Assembly (NCBI RefSeq): GCF_037042905.1
Contig: NC_087250.1
Coordinates: forward strand, 9,984,001 to 10,048,000
DNA: 64,000 nucleotides
Reading direction: 5' to 3'
From: Lytechinus pictus
Lineage: Eukaryota
Shown here: in pieces, positions 30,375 through 63,154 of the stretch
Layout of the letters: every line of letters begins with the position of its first letter
Numbering within the stretch: position 1 is the first letter of the stretch
Notes under the pieces: model-generated
What the model was told of the DNA's origin: nothing
Databases searched by the model: none
The model's input: only the letters and a program-made list of their open reading frames with translations
Program-made: the position numbers and the translations under genes

Positions 30375-30587
30375 CTGTTAAAGTGGGAGTACAATCTCGA
30401 AATGTTACTGCTATCGCCGGAGAAAGAGCTGAGCTTACATGCAATATCTCTCGGTACCAAAGTTCTCTCGTGTCCTTAACATGGGCCCTCGGATCTGAGA
30501 CTATCCTGGTCCACCTGTGTGAAGATCGATGTGCCAACGTTTCCACTGGTCAATTCGAATCCCATATCGACAAGGCAACTGGTTACG
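30375..30587 (+). CDS. Gene B exon 2, N-half of V-type Ig domain
   Basis: NVTAIAGERAELTCNIS..VSLTW; AAATAG / G|GTAATG; 213 nt, phase 1-1. Confidence 0.85.
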
Positions 30588-33159: not shown

Positions 33160-33267
33160 GTACATTGACGATTCAGCGTACTTTACCAGAGCAAGAAGGT
33201 GTTTATTCCTGTATCGTATCGGCCGAATCTACTATTATGAATGATAAAATCATCCTTGTCATTCAAG
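33160..33267 (+). CDS. Gene B exon 3, C-half of V-type Ig domain
   Basis: GTLTIQRTLPEQEGVYSC..IILVIQ; long polypyrimidine tract, TAAAG / G|GTAGGT; 108 nt, phase 1-1. Confidence 0.85.
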
Positions 33268-35288: not shown

Positions 35289-35621
35289 TTCCTCCTCAAG
35301 GAGTATTTCTCTACGACTTATCTCAACGCTTTCGCGTGGATGATTGGGAAACCATGATCACCCTAGACCAAGAGCAACTCCGTCTTCGATGCTCATTGGC
35401 AAACCCAACCAAACCCGAATCACAGCTTCGCTGGGAAACGAACAATATGGAGACCGCCCTCTACGAACAAGTTACCACATTGGAAGATGGCCTTTTCTCT
35501 AGTCACATGCATCTAGATGTGAAAATTCAGCGATCAGATCATGGGAAGGAAATTGTTTGCAGGGCTTCACAGAGAGGATATGGAGTAGTTCCGATGGCGA
35601 GTCTATTTATTCAAGTTCAAG
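35289..35621 (+). CDS. Gene B exon 4, C2-type Ig domain (nephrin/nectin-like)
   Basis: VPP..LRLRCS..TKPESQLRW..RSDHGKEIVCRASQ; CCACAG / G|GTATGT; 333 nt, phase 1-1. Confidence 0.9.
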
Positions 35622-36597: not shown

Positions 36598-36927
36598 AGT
36601 GCAAACTAGGTGTTCTTCCACCGGCATGTCGTGCAAATCTTACTTTGAATCAGGTGTCCCAAGTCACGTGTCCTCTGGCAATAGAGAACCCTTCACTGTC
36701 TGAAGGTTCAGCAGAAGTTACGCCTACCTTCAACGGATCTCACTTCGCTGTTTCGTTGAGACAGTCCTCCGAATTGCTAGGACTAGTTCTGGCTGCGCAA
36801 GTCCCCCATGTTCAGGCAGACCCGACCGAGGACGATATTGCACTCATAGAGTTTGTGTGTTGTGAGAATCCCGCATCATCTTGTCCGGGTGTCGCTTGCT
36901 CCGGAAAGTGTCGTTCTACTATTTTGC
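36598..36927 (+). CDS. Gene B exon 5, 8-cysteine module (possibly a Trp-less Ig variant)
   Basis: Open 330-nt phase 1-1 exon; CATTGCAG / C|GTAAGT; ECKLG..C..VTC...EFVCC..C..C..C. Confidence 0.8.
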
Positions 36928-36950: not shown

Positions 36951-39582
36951 CAGTGCGTCCCAGAAAAAACGAAACCGAGATTTATCGATGATTTATCATA
37001 ACTTAATCATAAATGCAATAAACAAATTACCTACCATTGTAAAGCTTCGAATCTCCTCTTTCATCTAAAATTACTTAAATTATTTCTCATTCACGCATAA
37101 GTGAGCAAAAACCATTTGAAGAGGGGATGCCAAAAAGTCATTTGGCGGGCTGTATCTGGGTTTCTAAGAGAAAACCACAATTTTTAAAAATTCAATATCT
37201 GCTCTATAATTTGATACCTCAATTACCGAAAATGGTCAAGAAATAACAAAGTTCTGGTTATTTGAAATAAGGCTTGAATTTCAATAATTTCATAAAATGA
37301 AGAGGTTTTACAGGCCAGCGTTCAAACTCACTCGACACTCAGTTCAGTTTCAGTTTAGTTTATTTCACTTCCATTTTCTGATAATAAACATAACAAACAT
37401 ATATATACATATGTATAAATGTACAAAACAGCATAAGTGTCATAAGAATACTTCAATAATCAATTAACAAATTCGTAGGAAATAGATGAAACGTATACAA
37501 TTTTTTGTTCAAGATACATTTTGATGATTAGACAAATTATTGATTACTGTTAGCATGTGAAAAGGAAAATGAGGGACTTATTAAAAGGCGAAGCTTGTAA
37601 TTGTAAGCCCCTTAGGATAAATTTGTAGTAATCTTTATCGTATGTAATTAAAAGTAAAGTAAGACAATCTAGACCATATATGAAGAACGGCAAAATAGGT
37701 TTGAATAACAAGGAAAGAAAGGGGGGGGGAGTAACTACATAGGTTACAGGGATAAGGGAATATTAAATAACTGGGGGAAAAAAAACAAAACAAAAAGAAA
37801 CGATTATGTGCCCAGCAGAAAAGGAAAGGGGAGGAGAAAGAGAAATAGGGTCGTGAGGCAAGTATCGTGGAAAAGATAAAGCAGTTCATGTGTTTCATAC
37901 ATTGTACTCATTAAGGAATGAAAGTTTTAGGTGTTTTTTGAAGGTGTTTATATTTCTATATTGTTTAAGGCTTTGGTGAATACCATTCCAGTATTTGGGA
38001 CCTGTGTAAATGATGGTTTTTTGTGCGAGTGTGGTTCTAGTCAGAGGGGGGTGATATTGATGTTGTATAGCTTGTCTTGTGGGGTATGTATGGATGTCAG
38101 TGTTTTTGGTAAAGAGTGAAGTAATTGCGGTGGGTAATTCGTTTTTTGATAGCTGGAACATAAAAGTTCCAAGGTTCAGGAGATAGAGATCGTGGATTTT
38201 TAGTATTCTATTTTTTTTAAATAACGGGCTTGTATGAGCACGGTAATGGGCATTTTCAATTATTCTAACAATTCGTTTTTGGAGCAAAAATATTCTATTA
38301 GTTTGTGTTATTTGTGAATTACCCCAGGATAAAATTCCGTAGTTTAGATAAGGGAGGATGAGGGTTGAGTAGAGGGTCAAAAGTATTTTGTGAGGTAAAA
38401 ATGTTTTAAGTTTGTTGATGACACCAATGTTTCTTGCGATCACTCTACAAAGAATATCAATGTGTGTTTTCCATGATAATTTATTGTCGATGAATATGCC
38501 AAGAAATTTTGTTGATTGGGTATAAATATTAATGCCATTAATGTTAATGTTACCATGGAGCGTTTGTATTGTGTTACTAAATAATATGTAATTTGTCTTT
38601 TTTATGTTTAATGATAGTTTGTTCGCCCGTATCCAAGCATGGACCGATTTCAATTCGGTATTCATAACATTAATCAAAGTTGTTGGGTCACGATGGGAGA
38701 AAAATATGTTGGAGTCGTCAGCGAACAGAATGAAGGATAATAGTTTAGAAGATTTATGGAAGTCATTTATAAATAATATAAATAATAGGGGGCTGAGGAG
38801 TGATCCTTGTGGTACATCACAATTTATGTTTTCCAGGTGTGATTTGCACCCATTAACACAAACGTATCGAGTTCTGTTAGTTAATTAATTCCTGTACCAC
38901 TCCAAGGCCTTTCCTCTAATACCGTAATAAGCAAGTTTTTATAAAAGAATATCATGATCTATAGTGTCAAAGGCCTTGGAGAAGTCCAGGAATATTCCAA
39001 CAGTGTGAAGGGATTTATCAATAGCTTTGATGACTTTATCGACGAGTGTAATCATAGCGTGAGTTGTTGCGTGTTTTTCACGGAAGCCATATTGGAATTC
39101 GTTGAGAATATTGCATTCATGAATGGACTTAATCGTTCGAGTATATACAGTTCTTGTTGACGATCAGCCATGCATTCAGTCTTTTGTTAACCATGCGATA
39201 GCTTCTGTGGGAAACCGGTGAAAACGCGTTTATTTAATGAAATTATGGAAATACAAGCATTGTTTCGATGGAACATTCCTTTTTTTTTACTTCTTGACCA
39301 ATTTTTGTGATTAAGGTATCAAATAAAAGAGCAGATATTGAACTTTTTAGGCATGTGATTTTCTTTTTGAAATTCAGATACCCCCCGCCAAATGAGTTTT
39401 TGGTATCCTTTCTTCAAATTGTTTTTGCTCACTCATGCGTGAATGAGGAATAATCTAAGTAATATCAGATGAAAGAGGAGATTCTAAGCTGTACAATGGT
39501 AGGTCATTTGTCTATTGCATTTGTGATTAAGATATGGTAAATCATCGCTTAATCTCGGTTTCGTTTTTTCTGGGACGCACTG
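36951..39582. mobile_element. Tc1/mariner-type MITE split by a LINE insertion
   Basis: TA-CAGTGCGTCCCAGAAAAAACGAAACCGAGATT ... AATCTCGGTTTCGTTTTTTCTGGGACGCACTG-TA; long complementary arms. Confidence 0.9.
37341..39150 (-). mobile_element. 5'-truncated CR1/Crack-like LINE (reverse transcriptase)
   Basis: FLDFSKAFDTIDH, VPQGSLLSP and LFADDSN motifs with stops; intact 260-aa C-terminal ORF 37895-38677; (AACTGA)n-type tail. Confidence 0.9.
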
Positions 39583-40289: not shown

Positions 40290-40589
40290 ACAACCCAACG
40301 AACGTTGAAATAGTTCGCCTCTCCGATGGCGCCCTTGCAGAACATGCGCAAAATATTTCAGTCATGTGCTTTGCAAATGGGTACCCTCCCCCCTCCGTCT
40401 CCTGGGTGAAGCAAGAAGTCACTGATCATAGTGGAGAAGAGAAAGGAGAGTTGGAATCAACCACTGGAATCGGCTCATCAACTCTGTTCTTTAAAAACTT
40501 GTTGCGCGGCCACTCAGGGGTATACGGCTGCCATGCAAATAACGGGATACCTCCAAGTGCGGAATCACGTATTAACATCGTTGTTAACC
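40290..40589 (+). CDS. Gene B exon 6, I/C2-set Ig domain
   Basis: ISVMCFANGYPPPSVSW..STLFFKNLLRGHSGVYGCHANNG; 300 nt, phase 1-1. Confidence 0.92.
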
Positions 40590-40898: not shown

Positions 40899-41195
40899 AT
40901 GCCCCGGATATTGATCTTGGGCAGACCAAGTTAAACCGAAACGAGGAAGAAAGTGTGCGGCTAACCTGTGAGGTAACAGCAAACCCAGAACCGACCCGAC
41001 TGGAATGGATCGATCCCAACGGACGGGTCATTGAAGGGACTCAGACGTCAGCGTTAACATCTAATCCATTTGAAACGGTAGTGGAATTCGTAGCAGCTTT
41101 CGTCGTGGGACAGGAAACTGTCTTTGGAAATTATACTTGCCTCGCAGCCAACGACTTTGGAAGTGCCAGAAATGATATCGTTTTAACAGGAAAAA
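40899..41195 (+). CDS. Gene B exon 7, I-set Ig domain
   Basis: APDID..VRLTCEVTANPEPTRLEW..FGNYTCLAANDFG; 297 nt, phase 1-1. Confidence 0.92.
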
Positions 41196-42076: not shown

Positions 42077-42358
42077 AATTCCCCGGGTCTCCTTCGAATC
42101 TGAACGCACTCGTCATTTCGGAAGATTCGCTAAAATTAACTTGGTCATACGATGATGAAGACGAGATATCGTTACACTTCAACGTGAAATATTGCAAGAA
42201 CTCTTCTCGAAGCAAATGCGGTCTACAAGACAACCATCAGAGCCGTTCTTTGGACATTGAAGGTTTGATGTCCTATACCTGGTATTGGGTGTCCATATGC
42301 TCCGAAAATGACTTTGGAAAAAGCAAATACTGTGAGGAAATTGTGACGTCAACTCCAC
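42077..42358 (+). CDS. Gene B exon 8, fibronectin type III domain 1
   Basis: FPGSPSNL..SLKLTW..FNVKYC..IEGLMSYTWYWVSICSENDFGKS; 282 nt, phase 1-1. Confidence 0.92.
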
Positions 42359-42834
42359 GTAAGTTTTTTTCTTCAACTCCTTTGGCAATTTTGGGGGGTA
42401 AATGTATAGCATTGATACATTTAAGGTCAAAGTTCACACACACCAATTAAACAGCAAAGCACAAGTGATTTAGTTGCAAATATCGTATTATTTATAACAT
42501 AAAAACACAAATTTTACCTATCCCATCATTTCTTATGGCGATTAAACTTTCTATCTTAATACCTCATGATTAATATAATTCTTGATTTTCCTAAAAACTC
42601 ATACCAAAATAAAACATTACCGTTGCATGAAGACCATACAGACATCCGAGTCGGTCATTGAGTCGAAAATTAGGTTTTAATTGCTCACGAAATATTTTCG
42701 TCATGACGAATGATGTGTGCAAAATCTCTCCCCCATTATACTATTGGTTGAACGAATTAAGAAAAAAATATTGTAATGGTACTTCACCCATAATAGTAAC
42801 TATACCACCAAATACATATATATATGTATATATA

Positions 42835-44498
42835 CACTGTTGGTCATAAAGGTGGAATATTTTTTTTCACCAAATTTTCACAGCGTAATTATTACAACAT
42901 GATTTGAATATGGCATTTATGGTGCATGATAACCACTTTACTTTATTATTCTGCCTCTTACACACGTTTGACAGTGATATTTTACAAGTTTATGTCCTAT
43001 TAAAGCGATGGATGTCATGAGCATAGAACAACAATGACGACAATGTATAGTAAATTAAAGGATCATGAGATATTTATTTTCAATCTCTCTCAGTTTTCCA
43101 TATGACTTTTTTTGTGATTTCATGGACAAATTTGCATCAAACTTGAGTCATTGTTCTTACTCAGTCACTAGTATCGGGTATATCCACCCCTGGCGCGAAC
43201 CAGCGCATGCAGACGTCGTGGCATGCTGTCCACTAGCTTGTTGACGATGTCGACAGGCATAGCGTCCCATTCTTCCCTCAGAGCATCTGCCAACTCCTGC
43301 AGATTTTGAGGAATGACCTCTCTGTCGTTGATGGCTCGGCCTAGGGCATCCCATGCATGCTCTATGGGGTTCATATCCGGCGAACAAGCTGGCCATGGCA
43401 ACTGTACGACGCCCTCTGCCTCCAGGAATTCCCTTACTGCAGCCGCCCTGTGCGGTCTAGCGTTGTCATCCTGCAGTCGGAAATTGTGCCCATACACTCG
43501 TCTTGCATATGGAAGACAGTGGAACTCCAAGATATCCTTGTAGGCGGCGGCGTTGACGTTTCCGTCCGGAACCACCAGTGGTGTTTTCCCTCCATAATGG
43601 ATGCCGGCCCATATCATCACTGAGCCGCCTCCGCCTTGAGTCGTCTCGCGGATAAATTCATCACGAAGGTTTTCCCCGGCTAATCGACGAACTCGTTGTC
43701 TCCTATCCTTTCGGTCAAGGATTAACCGGCTCTCGTCCGTGAAGACCACATGTTGCCAATGTCCTGGATGAAGCCTAATGTGCTCCCTAGCCCAAAGAAG
43801 ACGAGCTACTCTGTGGCGAACAGACAGGCGTGGGCATTTGGTCAACCGTCGAGCTCGGTAACCATGTTGGAGCAATCTGCGATTAACGGTTGACCGGGAA
43901 ACGTTGATCCCATGATATCTCCTCCACAAGCGACGAAGACGGCTTGAGGGCAATTTCCGGTTTCTGCGGCTGAAATTCAACAGTTGGCGATCATCTCTTC
44001 TTGTGGTCAATCTGGGACGTCCTGGTGATTTCCGTGGCCGCACATTCCCCGCCTCACGTTGACGTTTCAGGATCTTAGAGACTGCACTCTGTGATATCCC
44101 TAGGACTTCTGCGATATCAGTCTGCTTGTAGCCCTCCTGTCGCAGTGCTACCACTCTCTCACGTGTTGCTGTTACCGTCGGATCAGGCATAGTCCAGGGA
44201 ACGTCTCTACCGATTTTTGTTTCAAATGGTACAAGGAACTCGAAATAATGCAACCTTCTTATACATAGTGCTAAATCAGGGAAAGGGACAGAATATCATA
44301 TGCATAGGCTTTTATAGTCTACAACAAAAGAATTTATTACGTAATCCAAATTTATCATGTTATAATGTCACCTGTGTAATGGGGAAACATTATGTAATCA
44401 CTTAATTACCATTTTGTCTACGCGTAGCCTTTCAAATACCAACAAAACTGTCGATTTTTATTCAAAAATATTTTATTCCACCTTTATGACCAACAGTG
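42835..44498 (-). mobile_element. Full-length Tc1-family DNA transposon
   Basis: Perfect 25-bp TIRs CACTGTTGGTCATAAAGGTGGAATA; TA flanks inside an (AT)n tract; intact transposase ORF. Confidence 0.97.
43168..44190 (-). CDS. Tc1 DD34E transposase (340 aa from MPDPT; ORF track starts at 44253)
   Basis: Paired-like HTH, GRPR, FTDESR, QDDNARPH and WPACSPDMNPIE; 34 residues between the second D and E. Confidence 0.96.
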   Translation of the reverse strand: MPDPTVTATRERVVALRQEGYKQTDIAEVLGISQSAVSKILKRQREAGNVRPRKSPGRPRLTTRRDDRQLLNFSRRNRKLPSSRLRRLWRRYHGINVSRSTVNRRLLQHGYRARRLTKCPRLSVRHRVARLLWAREHIRLHPGHWQHVVFTDESRLILDRKDRRQRVRRLAGENLRDEFIRETTQGGGGSVMIWAGIHYGGKTPLVVPDGNVNAAAYKDILEFHCLPYARRVYGHNFRLQDDNARPHRAAAVREFLEAEGVVQLPWPACSPDMNPIEHAWDALGRAINDREVIPQNLQELADALREEWDAMPVDIVNKLVDSMPRRLHALVRARGGYTRY

Positions 44499-44959
44499 TA
44501 TATATATATATATATATAAATATAAATATGATACAAACATTACCTGTTTTCACTTTACAATGTACTTTCTATATATGCCGCTGTTTTGTGAATCTGATGT
44601 CGTTCATAAGTTCAATTCTTTACATGTAACACTTCTGTGATTTGGATGGTTTTCAATACGGAATAGAATTATATGAAATGAATGTAGCAATTTGCAATCC
44701 CTTCCAATTTAACATCTGGTATAGACATTAATTTGCCCTTTTCGTTGCATAAGCTTTTGCATAATATGGCTGGTCATTTAGTCTATACATTTTATTTTTT
44801 TTCTTGGCTATTATGTTTATTTATTAAGATTAGTATTTTTCGTGAATAAGTTTATTTTAAGTAGGCTAATTAACATAGAAATGTAAATTGATATATTGAT
44901 TTTTCTCCTATCAAACAGCTTTACCTCCAAGTTTTTTCGGTAAGTAATAATTTTGCTAC

Positions 44960-45378
44960 TCTTTTTCGTATTTACATATAGAAGTATGTATATATTGATC
45001 TTTTTATCTCTTACCAGCAAGTCTCCGTAGGCAAATAACTATTGCGTCTCTCTCTACCACCCCCCCCCCTCTCTCTCTCTCTCTCTTCTCTCTCCTTTCT
45101 CTTTCTTTAGGGAGGTTCACATTATACAAGCTATGCGTTTGGGTGCATCTCCCATCTCAACAGATCCTTTTATTTTCTATTTAAATTATGTATTATAATT
45201 TGTCTACAAAATGTATCATGTTATGTAAATATCTATGTTAATTATCATTGATGTTAGTGAATATATTTCAAATGACAATTATTCGTATTGTAAATGTTTG
45301 CTATATATGTATGAAAATAATTTGTATTATTCTTTACGTTCTGTAAGTTCGAAATAAAATCTGAATCTAAAAAAAAAA
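44960..45378 (+). mobile_element. CR1/Crack-like LINE 3' UTR, same family as 8373-9250
   Basis: GGGAGGTTCACATTATACAAGCTATGC..ATCTCCC matches the reverse complement of 8558-8601; AATCTGAATCT tail. Confidence 0.7.
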
Positions 45379-45632
45379 TCTCAATAAACACTTACATCTA
45401 AGTTGGCGGGCCCAATGGTATTTGTGTGTATGTGAGAACATATGTGTGAGTGTGTGTGTGTGTGGGTGGGTGTGTTTATGTGTGTGTGTGAGGGTGAAGG
45501 CTTTTTGGTATGGGCGTGTGTAAATAGCTGTGTGTCATGCTGAAAATGTAATGTCATATTGCATTCATAGGTGATTCGCCATCATGGTTCGTGAATCATA
45601 TAATATGAACGTAATCATGTTTGTGGATACAG

Positions 45633-45899
45633 GTGTGAATGCTACTTACCGCGAATTGACAAAGCGACTTACTCTAAGTAGAAACACTGACGGAAATACT
45701 CCGCCGATTCCAGCTGGACTTTGCTTCCACATCCAAATCTCGATAGCGGGTGTACGCCATGTGAACGACTCTTGTCTGTCTCCGAATAGCAGCCTTACAA
45801 CAAGCCATCAACTCTTGGATGGTCAGATCTGGCTCGTGTCATGTGGTCACGCCGTATGCAGTGACCCATCTCCTGTCCACTTCCTGCGTGACCCCGAAG
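45633..45899 (+). CDS. Gene B exon 9, unrecognised 4-Cys module, copy 1
   Basis: Open 267-nt phase 1-1 exon; clearly similar to exon 48679-48936. Confidence 0.85.
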
Positions 45900-46275
45900 G
45901 TAGGCCGCCTGTTAGTCTTTCGAATATTCATTATTCTTAATAATACTTACCATCATGAAAACTATAGTAGAATATTTCAGAGATCTTTGAGAAGCAATTG
46001 AAGTATATACTTGCAAAGTTTCGCTCGGCAAAATGCATGTTTGTATATTATATTTTGGGTACTCATACTCGGTACACGCTGCATTAGTTTCCAACCTTTA
46101 CAGGTGAACCGTGATATGTCCCCTTTCTGCTCCGTTAGATTCCATATTCGTGCTAATTTAAAGGTACATAATATGATGTCTTACTTGAACAAGGGATATG
46201 AGAAATTTCTGGTGATCCCAAAAAACGATTGTAAATGTATCTTTTTTCACTCGCTTTTTCCCCCATTTATCCTAG

Positions 46276-46560
46276 GCCCACCTGATGCACCTACGAGATT
46301 AGCAGTGAGAGATTATTCCGAGACGACCCTCACAATCGTATGGGAACACGATAAATACATTCAGAGAGGAAAGACGATTCTCTTCTTCTTAACGTGTTGC
46401 CGGAATGACACGCCCTCTATCTGCATAACCTTCTTCGACGTCAATGGCAGCCCATTGCACATTGCTGATCTGTACCCCAAAACTTGGTACCTCATTCGCG
46501 TTTATGCCCGAAACCAGTTTGGCGAGAGTCAACCTTCCCAGCTATTAGCTTCGACCGCAC
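46276..46560 (+). CDS. Gene B exon 10, fibronectin type III domain 2
   Basis: PPDAPTRL..TLTIVW..IADLYPKTWYLIRVYARNQFGES; 285 nt, phase 1-1. Confidence 0.92.
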
Positions 46561-46811
46561 GTATGGTGAAAATTCCCATGCTTAGTGTGTGCCATGCTTA
46601 TGAATTATATATATTTTTCCCCGAAAGCTATTATATCAAATGTTATTAAATTGTAATTGAAATCATTGTTAAGAGCAGGCTTAAACTGTTAACAAAAATT
46701 TCGTACTCTTTCCATCGGCTGTTGTACAAGCATCATATTTTGTTTTGAAGGATAATGGAAATAATACCCTTTTTTTTATCAAGCCCCTCATTTGACAAAA
46801 ACCTGTAGAAC

Positions 46812-47289
46812 ATATGTGACCTGCCACCCCAAAACCAACAATAAGTCGACCAAAATGAATATTGAGATTTTATTGAGCTTGAAAACTTATTTCCTAAGCT
46901 TCGAAATGATATATAATATGGTAAAATTGACCAACAATAACCATTACAAGTACTTGATTGAATGCAGAGGTAATTCAGCAAGAGCTAAACTATAAGGAGA
47001 AAACAAGGTTTGAAGTTTGGGGTTCACTCAAGCATTAGATGTGCATACTGCGTAATCTCAGTGAAACTTCCAAGCAGTCTGAAAAAGTAGTGTTCAAGAA
47101 ACTCTTGGATCTTTTATTTTATTCAATTTCACGACTTCAAATTTTCACAGTATAAAGAAAAAGATTTGTTCTTCCGGATAAGTGATTTTCTTAATATTTA
47201 GATCTTAGAGACTAAATTACAATTTTGGCATATTGACAGAGAACCATACCTGACGACTTATTTGCGGTTTTGGGTGGTAGGTCACATAT
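46812..47289. mobile_element. MITE
   Basis: ATATGTGACCTGCCACCCCAAAACC ... GGTTTTGGGTGGTAGGTCACATAT. Confidence 0.75.
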
Positions 47290-48170
47290 AAGCGTAAAAA
47301 CGAACACTATAATATTCATAACAAATAAGATATAACATGCACCCTTTTATTACTAACAACTATTCACGGCCGCACGCAACGGGTGTAGGGGCGCAGGGGG
47401 ACCAATGCCTCCGACCCAGAAATTTTGAAAACTTCCTTTTTTTTCCAAAAAAAATCATCAAAAGGGTAAAAAAAAAAAAAAAATCAATACCATTCTATAA
47501 AACGCAAATTGCCTCTTGACAAGCTCGGTCGCTTCGCACCCTAGCTTTATAGTTTCATTGGTCTTGCACCCTCCCCCCCCCCCCCCACCAAAAATAAATA
47601 AATATGTGTACAGCCATGTAACTGTTCACTTTTATATTATGTTAATATATAAATAGTTAATATTGGATTGAATATTTTGCATATAAGAAATATATAGTAC
47701 CATCTCTAAGGTCTGCGCACCACACTTAATGGTTCCCAATCACTTTTATACCTATTGTCACCAACCCAATTTTTTAATGTAAGAATAGTGTTTTTTTTTT
47801 TTAATCAGCACGGTTTTACACATTAACTAATGATTCAAGTATTATTTCTTTTCAAGATTCTTTAGTTATTAAATATTCAAAGAATGTAACTACTAAAATT
47901 GAGCTTCGACATATCCAATTCTTCTTCAAATATCATATCTAGTAATATTAAAGTATTGACACGTTTTTTTTTTTTTACAAAACAACTCAATCCCTTACGT
48001 TTAAACGTTATTATATTCACATTTGATTCTCCCAAATCAAATCCCGTGTAGATTTGATACCCAAATTTTCTAAAATCAATGTGTATTACATCTTAATTTT
48101 TTTTTTAACGCTCTACTTGCCTGATCAATGTTTCTTTATACTCCTTACATATATTGTTTTGTCTACCTAG

Positions 48171-48191
48171 CTGAATCGCCGGAGGCACTTG
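48171..48191 (+). CDS. Gene B exon 11, 21-nt microexon (PESPEAL)
   Basis: TTTTGTCTACCTAG acceptor, G|GTAAGT donor, phase 1-1, open. Confidence 0.65.
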
Positions 48192-48678
48192 GTAAGTATG
48201 CGTTTATTGTACTAAATTTTCACAGAACTTAAACAAAGAAAGGATAAAAAGGGGAAAATTATACTCGTCATTAGGAGATTAAAGAACGAAATGTATTGGC
48301 TCATGCAGGAGCTCATAATTTTTATTAAAAAAAAATATGGGATTGCTTTCACATGTTAAATTTGAATCCATGTTGTTTACGATTTGTGCTGATTTTCATA
48401 ATTCTGTAACGTAACAACTACACCTAAAATAAAGGTCTGATTGCCAAGGAGTAATAGATTGAGGATACAGAATGATAATTTTGAGAAAAGGTAAAGAAAA
48501 AATGACACTTTTTAAGGGGGGGAATCCCTTCGAAATCATTATTATGCCCGTATCTGTAGTACTCTTATATTCATTTTCAATGTTTTCCAGTAATAGGTCT
48601 TTTTGACATTTTTTTTTAATCATACCTCTAGCTGATCATAAACTTTTGCTTGGCGTATTGCCGATCTCCCTTTTTCAG

Positions 48679-48936
48679 GAATTACTGCGTCGTTTGAAAA
48701 ACAGACCAGTAAACTAAAGATCCATCAAAACTCGAAGGAGCTCTTACCACGTGATTTATGCATCCGTTTGGAAATTCGCAGCAACGAGTTTGTCCACCAG
48801 AACTCGACTTGCCTGAGACCTGATGATTCCAGCAGGCTATCTACAGATTACCATGCGGGACAACTTTGGATTGCATTATGCCGGGAAGAAGTCTGTGGTG
48901 CGCCTTCACAAGTCGACTTCATAGAGAGTGACTGGG
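48679..48936 (+). CDS. Gene B exon 12, unrecognised 4-Cys module, copy 2 (missed by ORF track)
   Basis: GITASFEKQTSKLKI..LPRDLCIRLEI..NSTCLRP..GQLWIALCREEVCGAPSQVDF; 258 nt, phase 1-1. Confidence 0.85.
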
Positions 48937-50472: not shown

Positions 50473-50574
50473 ACAGAATATCAACACCAGTATTGGCGTC
50501 GGTCATCTCAGTTACAGCGGTTGCCATGGTGATTTGTGGCTTCTGTTTCTACAGTAGATGCAATCGGTGTCAAA
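50473..50574 (+). CDS. Gene B exon 13, transmembrane segment (missed by ORF track)
   Basis: PVLASVISVTAVAMVICGFCFY-SRCNRCQ; TTTGCAG / A|GTAAGA; 102 nt, phase 1-1. Confidence 0.85.
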
Positions 50575-51245: not shown

Positions 51246-51424
51246 ACTACCAGTGGAACTACAATAAAGGTGGTCGTAAACTTCGTCGGAGGGGTCAAGA
51301 CGAACAGCCACAGGTATTTCGTCGAATTCCTGATGCTGACAGAAGCGTGCGAGGAGAGACACCAAGCCAATTGCCACCAATTCCTCCAATACCCCCACCC
51401 TTCCAGAATGACCTTGAATTGGTG
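51246..51424 (+). CDS. Gene B exon 14, cytoplasmic Pro-rich exon
   Basis: NYQWNYNKGGRKLRRRG..QLPPIPPIPPPFQNDLELV; phase 1-0; donor GTATGA (alternative GTGGTA 3 nt upstream). Confidence 0.7.
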
Positions 51425-55469: not shown

Positions 55470-55733
55470 AACTACGATGACGTACCAGATCAGAACAGAC
55501 GATCAGGATCAATCTCTTCCGGTTCGTTCATGGAATCACTTCCTGAGAGCATGCAGACCTCGGAGCCACAGGAAGGTTTCCAGGGTCCTCGTGCTTCGGC
55601 GGAAACACGAAACGGAATGTACTGTACCACTCTGATGCGGGACAGACGTGCCGCTGCAGGACGGGGAGCCCGTGCAGGTCTTAGGCAGCAAACAAGAATC
55701 ATTCGTATGAGGCCGATTAGTACACCTAACTAA
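55470..55733 (+). CDS. Gene B exon 15, terminal cytoplasmic exon
   Basis: NYDDVPDQNRRSGSISSGSF..GMYCTTLMRDRR..PN-stop; pyrimidine tract and AACAG acceptor; phase 0 matches exon 14. Confidence 0.75.
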   Translation, partial: NYDDVPDQNRRSGSISSGSFMESLPESMQTSEPQEGFQGPRASAETRNGMYCTTLMRDRRAAAGRGARAGLRQQTRIIRMRPISTPN

Positions 55734-58368: not shown

Positions 58369-61300
58369 CAGTGCGTGTCAAAAAAGTTTACACTTAGGAA
58401 AAGCCCTGGGAATTAAAAAATAAACAACATGTGGGTAATTTTTTCACATATAATCTTGGGTTAGGGTCTCATCTATCTAATGAAAGTAAAAGTTTTGACA
58501 GAATGTTACACTTGATAAGCACTGTCCATTTATGTAAAGCTCGCAGAAATCTGTTTGCGCAGAAATGCTCGTTTTCACGCTGTGTCAAGGGAAAAGGGAG
58601 AAATCAAACTTACCCTGCGAAACATTTCTCATACATTTCCCTTGCACTTATAGTCAGTTGAGATAAAACGGGTATACATTCAAACATTTTGTAGCAATTT
58701 TGCCACCCAAATTGAAATTTCAACACTTAGTAAGCACAACCTCTACCCTTTTGTGCCAGCCGGATCTGAGGACATAACTGAATCTGAACAAAAGTTTATA
58801 TCAGACATACATATCCAGCATTTGTTCACTAAGTTTTTATCATTTAAAGTGGGATTACATTTAATTTTTCATACTTGTTTCTCCACACTTTTTCCAAGCT
58901 TGACAATGATTAACAAAATGACAATCAAGCCTAAGCCATTTCATGTAAATCACAGTTCAGTGTAAAGCAAATATCGTCACGATGGTCTCGGTGTGTGGGG
59001 GAGTGGGGTGGGGCGTAATGCACCCTTCGACAAGGAAACAAGTTTAAAAAGGTAAAAAATATCTTCAAATCAATTTTCTAGAATTTCTACGTCCAAAATC
59101 AAGGTCCCCATCAAGCTCCGACTACGCCACCGATGACTTCAGCACACTCTCGTCACGTCAGATTACCCAGGAAGAACGGATAACTTCTCCACAAAAAGCA
59201 CACCCCAGCAGAAAGTTCAAAAGAGGAATCGGAAAGAAAGAAGGTGACCAAAGAAAAGTGAGTAAACTGAAACTCAGATCACTAAACATGGACATGGAAA
59301 ATAATATATCCTCGGTACGAGTGAACGAAAACAGAATATGTATTTTTTATCCCTCAATGTAAGGGGGATCAGAAATAAACTGAAACGAAGCAAAATTTTG
59401 TCGTGGATTATAAAACAGAAAACAGATGTAATAATGTTACAAGAAACTTTTTTGACCTTTGAAATGGAATCAATAGTGAGTCTAAAATTAGATTACCAAT
59501 GTTTCTTCAATCATGGCACAAACCACTCTAAAGGTGTGGCTATTTTTGTGCGTAAAAAAAAAATGTTATTATGAACAGATCGAAAAGTTTGTACACCTTG
59601 ATGGTCGTGTTCTTGCGATAAGATTGAAAGATGATTAAAAAAGCAATTCACCTGGCGTCAATTGTCATTAAATATATTTTCCCGTCTTGACTATTGGCTG
59701 TTAATAGATTCTTTATGGTGCTGTGTGCAAACGGTTGAAATTAAATCTGCTCCAAATTGTGATCATTGTGCAATTACTTTAAAAAATGACAACTAATAGT
59801 CCTCGAAAAGGATGTGGCTTATGGAAAATGAATAATTCGTTTTTAAAAGACGATTATTATACAAAAAATGTGAAAAGTTTGATTAAAAATTATATTGGAA
59901 AATGTTAATATGAATCAAATGAATTGGGACATGTGTAAAATAAAAATTAAAGAATACACAATCAAGTATTCGAAACAAAAACAGAAAGAAAATAATGAAA
60001 CTTTTAAACAATTACACTCTGAATTCGATTCAATGAGTTATAAGACTGATGAAAACCCATCTAATGAAAATAAAGCTGAATTAGAACGAACAAAAATTCA
60101 ACTATACCAATGGTTAACATATAAATGTAAAGGAGCTTTCATCAGATCCAGGCGAAAGTGGATGGAGCATGGTGAAAAGTCAACCAAATATGTTTTTGAA
60201 AGCGAAAAGAGAAACGGAAAGAGAAAATAAATTAATTATATTAAAAAGAATGGAAGGGTTATTACAAACCAGGAATCTGTTCTTGGAGAAATATTTCAAT
60301 ATTATAAACATTTGTACTCTAAAACAAACAATGAAGTTGAATCGTCTGATATTGATGACTATTTAGATTCAACTATATTACCTACGTTAACAGAACAAGA
60401 AGCATTGTCATGCGAAGGTATACTTACTGAGGAAGAATGTCGTAATGCTTTATTTTCTAACAATAAGTCGCAAGGTGGTGACGGTTTATCTGTTGAATGT
60501 TTAAAGTATTTTTGGGACGATGTTAAATCCCTTATAATAGTGTTAATGAAGGTTTCAAAAACAGTTATCAGAAACTCAGAAATTAGCTATATTAACTTTG
60601 CTGTACAAGAAAGGTGATAAACAATGTCTAGATAATTGGAGACCTATATCATTGCTCAACACTGATTATAAGATTGCAGCATAAGTATTGTACAAGATTA
60701 AGAGGTATTATAGATAAATTGATTTCTTTTGATCAATCAGGTTATCTAAAACAGCGCTCTGCTATGCAAAATCTACGTTTGGTTAAAGATATCAAATATT
60801 ATGAATATAATAATCACCAAGGCATTTTTCTTTTTCGTGATTTTCGAAAAGCTTTCGATACGGTTACCTATCAGTTACTATTTCAAATATTATACAAACT
60901 TAAATTTAAAGAATCTTTTATTACATGGATTAAAGTCCTCTATGCAAATGTTGGAGGGAGTGTCATGAATAATGGTTGGATTTCGAAAAAATTTGAAATA
61001 AAAAGAGGAATTAGACAGGGTTGCCCTCTGTCCGCTCTATTGTTTATTCTTGTTGTTGAAATTATGGCATTAAAATAAAGCAGAATATTGATATCAGTGG
61101 TATCACTGTAGTATCTACTGAAACTGGTATTTCAAAAGAATTTAAGATATATCAAATTGCAGATGACACTGTTCTCTTTTTAAACAACATTCAATCTGCC
61201 AACTTATGTCTTGAAGAAGTAAAACTTTTTGGTTTCTTGGCTGGGCCAAGCCTAAATGTAATGAAAACAAATGCTGTCACTATGCAACAACATGCATTCA

Positions 61301-63154
61301 TTGAAGGTATTAAATGGAATGATGAACCTGTCAAGTACTTAGGAATGTATCTAACAAGTGATAAAAAAGAGTCTGAACGACTAAACTGGTTTATGAAACT
61401 TCAAAAAGTTAAATCAATTTTAATTTTTTTGGAAAATGAGAAATTTCACTTACTATGGTAAAGTTTTGATTCTTAAATCATTAGTAATTTCTCAATTTGT
61501 TTACGTTGCCTCTGTATTACCAATCCCCCAGAAACTAGTTGTTGATCTCAATAAACTGATGTATAATTTTTTATGGAATTCAAATCGAGAAAAAGTCAAG
61601 AGAGCAGTCTTGATTAATAATATTATAAGGGGAGGACTGAGAATGATAGATTTGAAATCTAAATTCCAATCATTACATTCATCATGTTTGAGTAGATTCT
61701 TTGAAAATGATAATGATGTACCGTGAAAAATTATGTTTAGATATTGGATAGAAAAAATATGTCCTTTTTTATTAATTTTGAAAAACAAATTGTTTCAGTA
61801 AAGATATGTTGAAGTTGTGCGTAAAACAAAAGGTACCCAACTTTTATATTGACTGTCTCATAACTTGGAGTGAACTTAAATATATTCAGTTTCCAGATAT
61901 TGTAAATGTTAAAAATCAAGTTTTGTGGTACAATAGTAATATCACACATGATAGAAAATCTTTATTTTTTTTAATGGTTTGAAAAAGGCATTATAACGAT
62001 TAATGACATTGTAGAAAATGGACGATTTCGGCCAAGAGAACATATTTGTCGAGTGCTTGGCTCAAATTCTTTGTTAATTGACTTTATGTATTCGAAACTG
62101 AAAAATGCAATACCAAAAACTTGGATCGAAAGAATTCTAGACATAAGTTATGCAGATAACGATGGAACAAATTCACAATACGGAAGCGACGTATTCGAAA
62201 TTAGAACGCTTGATTTTATTAGACTACGATCAATGAAGTCTCGCAATTTCTATAGTTTATTGTGTGAATTTAAGAAAAGAGAACCGACTGCTTTAACATT
62301 CTGGGAAGGTGAATTGAACCTTGCAATTGATTTTGACTGGAAAGACACATTGAAATTTAAGTTTAAGACATTGAAAAACAATAAAATAAAGCAACTCGAC
62401 TTCAAAACTCTTCATAGGACTTTATCGTTTAGATACAACTTGTGGAGGTGGAAAATCGTAACAGACAACTTATGTATTTTCTGTAAAACAATAGAATCTT
62501 TTGTTCATGTTGTTTTAGAATGCCCAAGCGTAAAGCTTTTCTGGAAACGTATTGTGGATTTGATTAATTTAATGTTTAAAGGAAAATATATTAAACGAAA
62601 AATCAATAATAGTTGGTTTTGATTTCACACATGAAAAAGAAACAGATATAAATATAAATAAATCCTTGTGTATGCTCAGTATGCAATCTATTTGATGTAT
62701 ATGATTAATTATTTTCAAGGTAAACCATACAACAGTTATTCTATATGGCATGTGTTTAAATATGAAATTCTTTTAGACGACATCTCGGATGTTGTCTCTA
62801 AGACCCTGAATGTTAATACATATTAACTTGGCAATTGAATAAATAAAAAACCTCCGACACGAGGAAAAAAAAATCTTCAAATCAATTCTACTAGCTAAAT
62901 TCCACGTGATCTTCATGATTAAGGTTTACTTTTATTCGCATAACTATTTCAAAGTTCTGCGCAAATCGTTTTTCACTAACTTTTCAAAAGCAAGTGGTGC
63001 TCACTCAAGCAGAAATATATTTTGACAGTTATATCGTCATTTGCTTAAATGGATCTGTACCAATGTTAAAATGTGGAAAAATATTCAGGATATTACAAGT
63101 GTATAATTTTACAGGATTGTTTTCAAAGTGCAAACTTTTTTTTGATACGCACTG
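58369..63154. mobile_element. Tc1/mariner-type non-autonomous element split by an L1
   Basis: TA-CAGTGCGTGTCAAAAAAAGTTTACACT ... AGTGCAAACTTTTTTTTGATACGCACTG-TA. Confidence 0.85.
59081..62870 (+). mobile_element. L1/Tx1-clade LINE with decayed ORF2 (APE endonuclease, RT, CCHC)
   Basis: SLNVRG..LQET endonuclease motif; [22 protein letters not shown] and IADD RT motifs; CIFC..HVVLEC; AATAAA and poly-A; TSD-like ATCTTCAAATCAATT on both sides; many frameshifts. Confidence 0.92.

Follow-up and report, generated by a model that had tools for sequence, protein, structure and literature searches.

Genes and features at the locus

This study concerns a stretch of 64,000 nt from the sea urchin Lytechinus pictus (NCBI RefSeq assembly GCF_037042905.1, contig NC_087250.1, positions 9,984,001 to 10,048,000), referred to here as the window, and in particular two exons of a predicted receptor gene on its forward strand which encode copies of a four-cysteine extracellular module. 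The body of module 1 is encoded at 45633..45899 (+, 267 nt), and that of module 2, the membrane-proximal copy, at 48679..48936 (+, 258 nt). An earlier note, made from the letters of this DNA alone, had aligned these two exons, assigned both to phase 1-1 and proposed that each follows a fibronectin type III (FN3) exon as part of a duplicated unit. The phase assignment is borne out by AG/GT splice ends, lengths divisible by three and open frames in both exons. An FN3 exon does precede each module, at 42077..42358 (+, 282 nt, phase 1-1; Pfam fn3 37.5 bits, E 2.8e-9) and at 46276..46560 (+, 285 nt, phase 1-1; Pfam fn3 42.5 bits, E 7.6e-11), but it does not adjoin the module, as a micro-exon of 21 nt lies between them. 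The repeat unit, which is present twice in the window, is thus composed of FN3, micro-exon and module.

Micro-exon 1 (44919..44939, +) encodes (P)LPPSFF(G), the N-terminal segment of the derived domain discussed below, and micro-exon 2 (48171..48191, +) encodes (P)ESPEAL(G). Both are in phase 1-1, and each is the sole candidate of the form YAG-(9–60 nt)-GTRAG within its intron, with a window average on the forward strand of 2.3 such sites per length. In a strict splice scan for pyrimidine tracts micro-exon 2 passed and micro-exon 1 failed. Splicing of the six exons of the two units, both micro-exons included, yields an open stretch of 377 residues.

Upstream of the first unit, a V-type immunoglobulin (Ig) domain is encoded by two exons, at 30375..30587 (+; weak Pfam ig/V-set matches, 67% identity to the related record P0024, acceptor tentative) and at 33160..33267 (+; tblastn matches to P0024 and a second related record, P0023; phase 1-1). 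These are followed by a C2-set Ig exon at 35289..35621 (+; Pfam C2-set_2, E 2e-10), a cysteine-rich third ectodomain exon of 330 nt at 36598..36927 (+; zero Pfam families, 56% identity to P0024) and two I-set Ig exons at 40290..40589 (+; Pfam Ig_3, E 1e-10) and 40899..41195 (+; Pfam Ig_3, E 4e-9). The third ectodomain exon carries a CC-x(n)-C-x3-C signature, a motif found in all ten relatives checked, and it probably represents a second unnamed domain, namely another cysteine-stapled derived Ig domain. Downstream of module 2 lie a transmembrane exon with a hydrophobic run (50473..50574, +, phase 1-1), a tentative juxtamembrane tail exon (51246..51424, +; open, phase 1-0, weak acceptor) with a basic stretch and the proline-rich LPPIPPIPPP, and a tentative last tail exon (55470..55733, +; phase 0 start, open to the stop) with the tyrosine motifs NYDDV and GMYCTTL. 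The likeness of this last exon to the tail motifs of the family was judged by eye and is not significant by hidden Markov model comparison, and a search with a family tail profile detected neither of the two tail exons of the window. The predicted gene product is a type I receptor with five Ig-type domains, two repeat units, a transmembrane segment and a tyrosine-bearing tail; no exon for a signal peptide was located.

Conservation and relatives of the module

Modules 1 and 2 are identical at 25 of 84 positions (30%; two-sequence BLASTP, E 1e-14), and their Smith-Waterman score of 119 was not reached by any of 5000 shuffles (mean 24 ± 4.5), so that the two exons are homologous, as the earlier note had read them. 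Both copies retain the four cysteines (spacing 17/23/5), the tryptophan and the NxS/T sequon to which that note had drawn attention. No family was found at cutoff in a Pfam scan of both modules, and fn3 did not appear even at E<=10. The same scan of eight aligned family members yielded no family at cutoff, and no fn3 match at E<=10, in any of the eight, and two module-only fragment proteins have no precomputed Pfam domain. The module is 68% and 69% identical to the orthologue-level records P0023 and P0024, respectively (module 1), while the other exons of the window gene that are present in these records reach 49–67%. This suggests a constraint at least equal to that on the Ig and FN3 domains, in line with the selection that had been proposed from the retained residues. 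The module is a real, conserved and unnamed domain family.

That the exons are non-coding, or that their likeness reflects chance or a RING-like metal-binding motif, is highly improbable. A weak zf-RING_5 match (E 0.074) and RING look-alikes in ESM features (0.83) would speak for it, and no transcript of the gene was seen, although a search for RNA runs listed none, which weighs on neither side. However, the match spans only 15 residues at half of the cutoff, the splice sites and the frame are clean, the orthologues are 68–69% identical with named relatives in three genera, and the domain lies N-terminal of the transmembrane segment and carries a sequon. RING fingers are intracellular and have eight metal ligands in a C3HC4-type spacing. 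A RING finger was rejected as a class assignment, as the module has only four cysteines, an extracellular position and a zf-RING_5 score of 13.5 bits against a cutoff of 27.9.

A phmmer search with module 1 against 1.84 billion representative sequences yielded nine matches, of which seven are real. The other two, the wasp repeat proteins P0003 and P0010, were dropped because they matched over only 24–26 residues within low-complexity repeats. Seven further records were added by a profile search, whereas a word-based search with module 2 alone produced three candidates and no match, and a short-protein profile search with 138 candidates returned just two sequences, both already in the family set. 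The earlier note had asked for the taxonomic range to be mapped, and every named real relative is a sea-urchin sequence (Strongylocentrotus purpuratus, L. pictus, L. variegatus and Diadema setosum). The family thus appears to be echinoid-only so far, a weak conclusion because the exhaustive search started from one sequence and the profile searches rely on words in common. The note had also held that a missing Pfam match together with many homologues would support a new domain. With no Pfam family at cutoff and seven real matches among 1.84 billion representatives, the family is new only in the Pfam sense, and small.

The named relatives are built of Ig domains, FN3, module, transmembrane segment and tail, mostly with a single membrane-proximal module, and FN3 precedes the module in all 22 long relatives. 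The module thus sits at the membrane-proximal end of a sea-urchin family of Ig-FN3 type I receptors. P0023 and P0024 read FN3-module-FN3, and both records end before any second module, so that the window gene alone shows two copies. Paralogous modules are 27–40% identical to module 1. Within each Lytechinus species, the paralogues P0006/P0009 and P0015–P0017/P0019 lie on scaffolds of the same length, which suggests linked gene copies. P0026, an older S. purpuratus gene model, contains the first half of the module only, while the current models contain the whole; either the older model is in error or the module exon has a splice donor inside it. A literature search, with most subscription papers outside its scope, yielded no account of this sea-urchin family among the entries listed, and no papers were found for five LOC identifiers of the family. 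Given that scope, the genes may well be listed in papers on sea-urchin genomes.

The relatives also bear out the reading of the micro-exon. At the position of the linker, 18 of the 22 long relatives show a proline, six residues and a glycine. The remaining four, which are MetaClust records, read TP/TA-R-V, exactly the product of skipping the window micro-exon, and may be gene models that miss the exon. P0024, one of these four, does hold an orthologue of micro-exon 2 (QSPEALG vs ESPEALG). The micro-exons supply an FN3-like opening, PxxP..[L/F]G[V/I]. Among the 11 linker-bearing rows of the alignment, the first proline, whose codon spans the junction of FN3 exon and micro-exon, is kept in all, and the FN3 'L' site is hydrophobic in all; PxxP itself occurs in five of the 11 and in both window micro-exons.

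Predicted fold

The linker and module of the paralogue P0020 were modelled with AlphaFold 2 from a 13-sequence alignment, which gave seven strands and no helix (predicted local distance difference test, pLDDT, 84.4; predicted template modelling score, pTM, 0.73). Window module 2, modelled from its sequence alone, likewise shows seven strands (pLDDT 63), and strands A, B, C, C′, E, F and G can be placed on module 1 by transfer from the paralogue model. Among 48,161 chains compared with VIA-align, the P0020 model matched IL-10R1 best (Z 7.5, root-mean-square deviation 3.0, 89 residues aligned), with a chain of an IL-27 complex (Z 7.3) and a clostridial Fn3-like protein (Z 7.2) nearly tied; the top match of the window module 2 model had a Z of 6.5. 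As judged from their titles, about 37 of the 50 VIA-align matches listed are FN3 or cytokine-receptor domains and none are antibody domains. The ten best of these structural alignments show 7–13% identity. The FN3 matches begin at model residue 1–3 and so cover the micro-exon peptide, while antibody domains align at a Z of about 5 and begin at residue 9–10. Features from ESM for the P0020 segment resembled fn3 at 0.91, which was taken as a lead only.

Several results weigh against an FN3-like reading. A streptococcal adhesin ties for the top VIA-align match (Z 7.4), none of the 48,161 chains reached Z 8, and by the guidance of the program a Z of about 7.5 may reflect no more than a common arrangement. 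The combination of AlphaFold and Foldseek that the earlier note had suggested gave no match at E<=0.001 for either model, and the top 50 Foldseek entries for the P0020 model are mostly nanobodies. The ESM match to fn3 shared 154 of 256 features, with a segment that included the last residues of a real FN3 domain, and module 1 in isolation resembled RING fingers rather than fn3. DSSP assigns no strand to the micro-exon peptide in the AlphaFold 2 model. At the sequence level no link between module and FN3 was found by hhalign or by pairwise tests: the hhalign score of the module against family FN3 domains (11.8, E 0.18; shallow FN3 profile of 17 rows) lies within the range of shuffles (median 10.9, 95th percentile 14.7) and is no better than that against Ig (12.2), and pairwise scores between module and FN3 are at chance level. 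Sequence searches of the PDB with the module likewise returned chance-level matches (E 0.28–0.64).

Weighed against the absence of any match at Z 8 and of a Foldseek match, the FN3-like VIA-align matches suggest an Ig-like sandwich which is most like FN3 and not a new fold. On the evidence of the models the fold is very probably FN3-like, although they cannot pick its specific parent. The earlier note had left a choice between a new family and a very derived FN3-like β-sandwich; the structure predictions fit the latter and do not fit a new fold.

The cysteines and signature residues define the module further (residue numbers follow the model). All 16 rows of the module alignment carry the four cysteines with a spacing of 16–17/23/5, the first two and the last two being set around a short turn each. 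Gln70 is present in 16 of 16 rows, Trp72 is missing from one and the sequon from three. The family signature reads LC-x15/16-CL-x15-Q[LI]W-x3-C-x4-C. From the cysteine spacing and the strands assigned by AlphaFold 2, two putative cross-strand disulfides can be placed, C-C′ (Cys36-Cys53) and F-G (Cys76-Cys81). The canonical FN3 domains of the family also have a cysteine pair near the C-C′ turn in the alignment, in a register that differs from that of the module, and a further pair lies on F/G in the first FN3 domain of the window (42077..42358).

A test list was taken from PMC9546547, which names six conserved residues of Fn3 domains. Of these, the proline that opens strand A is retained in the linker-bearing rows. 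The strand-B tryptophan occurs in none of the 16 rows, its site being occupied by S, R, F, P or Q with no tryptophan anywhere in the region. The tyrosine corner has no tyrosine in either register (site 69 polar or glycine; site 71 leucine in ten and isoleucine in six rows). The tyrosine sites at the start and the end of strand C, in a register assigned by the analyst, hold hydrophobic replacements at the start (F in seven, I in nine rows) and F in seven, I in five, V in three and Y in one row at the end. No leucine is found at the E-F loop site in any row, and in several rows a hydrophobic remnant lies three residues on, in an uncertain register. Seven strands in an FN3/C2 topology are present in prediction, with full-length FN3 alignments at Z <=7.5 and a root-mean-square deviation of about 3. 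The hallmark of Ig domains, a 'pin' of a B-F disulfide with a strand-C tryptophan as described in PMC9546547, is absent: the cysteines lie on C, C′, F and G with none on B, and strand C has no tryptophan. The module is thus FN3-like in its predicted fold, yet not a member of Pfam fn3.

Origin of the module and of the doubled unit

Descent of the module from FN3 is probable, because of its fold, its position and its PxxP..L.[VI] opening. In such a descent, the second of two FN3 repeats would have lost the strand-B tryptophan and the tyrosine corner and gained two cross-strand disulfides. A separate origin, either as a decayed C2-set Ig domain or by convergence on an s-type fold, would be in keeping with the chance-level profile comparison with FN3, with the lack of the FN3 tryptophan and tyrosine corner in 16 of 16 rows, with non-animal Ig-like domains that score equal to FN3, and with the common topology of C2-set and FN3 domains stated in PMC9546547. 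We consider it unlikely, though, as the opening and the N-terminal extension are FN3-like, the module comes directly after FN3 in 22 of 22 long relatives, the assigned strands do not position the cysteines for an Ig B-F bridge, and antibody domains align worse.

The FN3-module repeat is old: both FN3 exons are found in P0023 and P0024, so that it predates the split from these records. The two window modules (30% identical to each other) are no more alike than module 1 and the modules of paralogues (27–40%). In trees of the units the two window units did not group, and a single clade was not rejected (p-AU 0.33), with long-branch warnings. The two units may stem from an internal duplication or from the joining of units from different paralogues.

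Proposed function

For the module together with its micro-exon, we favour the explanation of a highly derived FN3-type sandwich of C2/s-topology with about 95 residues, which serves as a receptor stalk, and regard it as fairly likely overall. The distal V, C2 and I-set domains would bind a cell-surface or soluble partner. The module would form a rigid, N-glycosylated stalk packed on the preceding FN3 domain and set the height and the angle of the distal Ig domains, and the two FN3-module units of the window gene would give a longer ectodomain. The tail would recruit SH3 proteins by its proline motif and SH2 proteins by tyrosine docking sites, and relay a signal. In the tails of paralogues, YxxM, a PI3K-type site, and Y-x-T-x-[LIT] are each found in nine of nine and RxLPxxP in eight of nine. 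RxLPxxP is reported as a high-affinity SH3 ligand in PMC4380453. Two points count against this scheme: the tentative tail of the window gene has a proline-rich stretch and two tyrosine motifs and no strict RxLPxxP or YxxM, and module 1 is the best conserved of the nine exons compared, which a passive spacer would not need to be.

As to the module itself, the balance leans slightly towards a mainly structural role. With the same fold, it could instead be an active binding or dimerisation surface whose conserved Q-[LI]-W face contacts a partner chain or a co-receptor. Cytokine receptors, with their FN3 'stem' domains next to the membrane, offer a model for such a role, and many structural neighbours of the module are cytokine-receptor domains, although these tie with generic FN3 domains (Z within about 1). 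The top rank of module 1 in conservation among nine exons (68–69%) also fits a binding surface, whereas paralogous modules are just 27–40% identical to it. Gln70 and Trp72 are nearly invariant (16 and 15 of 16 rows), and Trp72, which alternates with the buried residues 71 and 73, probably faces outward; an exposed tryptophan could, however, just as well pack onto the N-glycan close by or onto the FN3 domain before it. We hold this alternative to be possible, if doubtful. It is still less probable that the family represents undescribed diversified recognition receptors, like the histocompatibility proteins Alr of Hydractinia, or an immune co-receptor, with the module as a stem for dimerisation in cis. 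The V-set, CC-motif, I-set, FN3 and FN3-like domains, the SH3- and SH2-type motifs of the tails and the paralogues on scaffolds of equal length would be in keeping with this. In that case skipping of the frame-preserving micro-exon could switch the geometry. A new mechanism would be opened only if these receptors prove to be recognition molecules in allorecognition or immunity.

Other features of the window

An intact open reading frame of 375 codons on the reverse strand (44295–43171, −) lies in the intron that separates the first FN3 exon from micro-exon 1; judged by eye from its motifs, it looks like a Tc1/mariner transposase. Fragments like LINE-type reverse transcriptase/endonuclease, also identified by eye, lie at 38884–37898 (−) and at about 59300–62620 (+). 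A second Ig-domain gene, divergent from the receptor gene, occupies 19159–11651 (−) with a V-set exon (E 1e-8) and a weak C2-like exon; no module or FN3 exon of this gene was found in the window.

Comparison with known systems

The closest defined family is Pfam fn3 (PF00041), with which the module shares its size (about 95 residues), its seven strands in prediction, structural matches from end to end, a PxxP-like opening, phase 1-1 exons and a position between Ig/FN3 domains and the membrane. It differs in having no Pfam match, no strand-B tryptophan, no tyrosine corner, two putative hairpin disulfides and an N-terminal segment that has a 21-nt exon of its own. The module thus appears to be a lineage-specific FN3-type variant, putatively disulfide-stapled and with a micro-exon-encoded N-terminus, rather than a new fold. 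Its cysteine signature marks an echinoid family whose database labels are 'uncharacterized', 'titin-like' or 'NCAM2-like', and the analysis corrects gene models that drop the 21-nt exon, which should be of use to domain curators and to work on echinoderm immunity and adhesion.

The architecture of NCAM-like proteins is five Ig and two FN3 domains. The paralogue P0025, with five Ig domains, FN3, an FN3-like domain and a transmembrane segment, resembles it, and NCBI names such as 'NCAM2-like', 'titin-like' and 'roundabout-like' given to the relatives are automatic. Unlike NCAM, the sea-urchin family has a V-set first domain, a third domain with the CC motif and a multi-tyrosine tail. The domains of class II cytokine receptors, in which a D1-D2 pair binds the cytokine, are disulfide-bearing derived FN3 domains, and those of IL-10R1, IFNGR1, IFNLR1 and tissue factor are the best or tied-best matches of the module (Z 5.7–7.5). 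However, the module matches no Pfam family of theirs, identity is 6–10%, these Z scores overlap those of other FN3 domains, and the sea-urchin module comes after two to five Ig-type domains.

The closest precedent, as an analogue set beside the module by description, appears to be the extracellular spacer of the Hydractinia Alr receptors, an invertebrate family of the immunoglobulin superfamily. This membrane-proximal region long went unrecognised until ColabFold predicted it to be Fn3-like (PMC9546547). According to the same paper, the spacer lacks the E-F leucine; like the module it lacks the tyrosine corner and has predicted disulfides, which link neighbouring strands of one sheet, and the Alr receptors also have tails with tyrosine motifs. 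The spacer as described there differs in that it keeps the strand-B tryptophan, reaches 60–88% to Fn3 in HHpred, follows an I-set domain rather than FN3 and is encoded by a single exon (PMC9546547). After the Alr spacer, the sea-urchin module would be the second invertebrate case of an FN3-like domain that has apparently traded core signature residues for surface disulfides.

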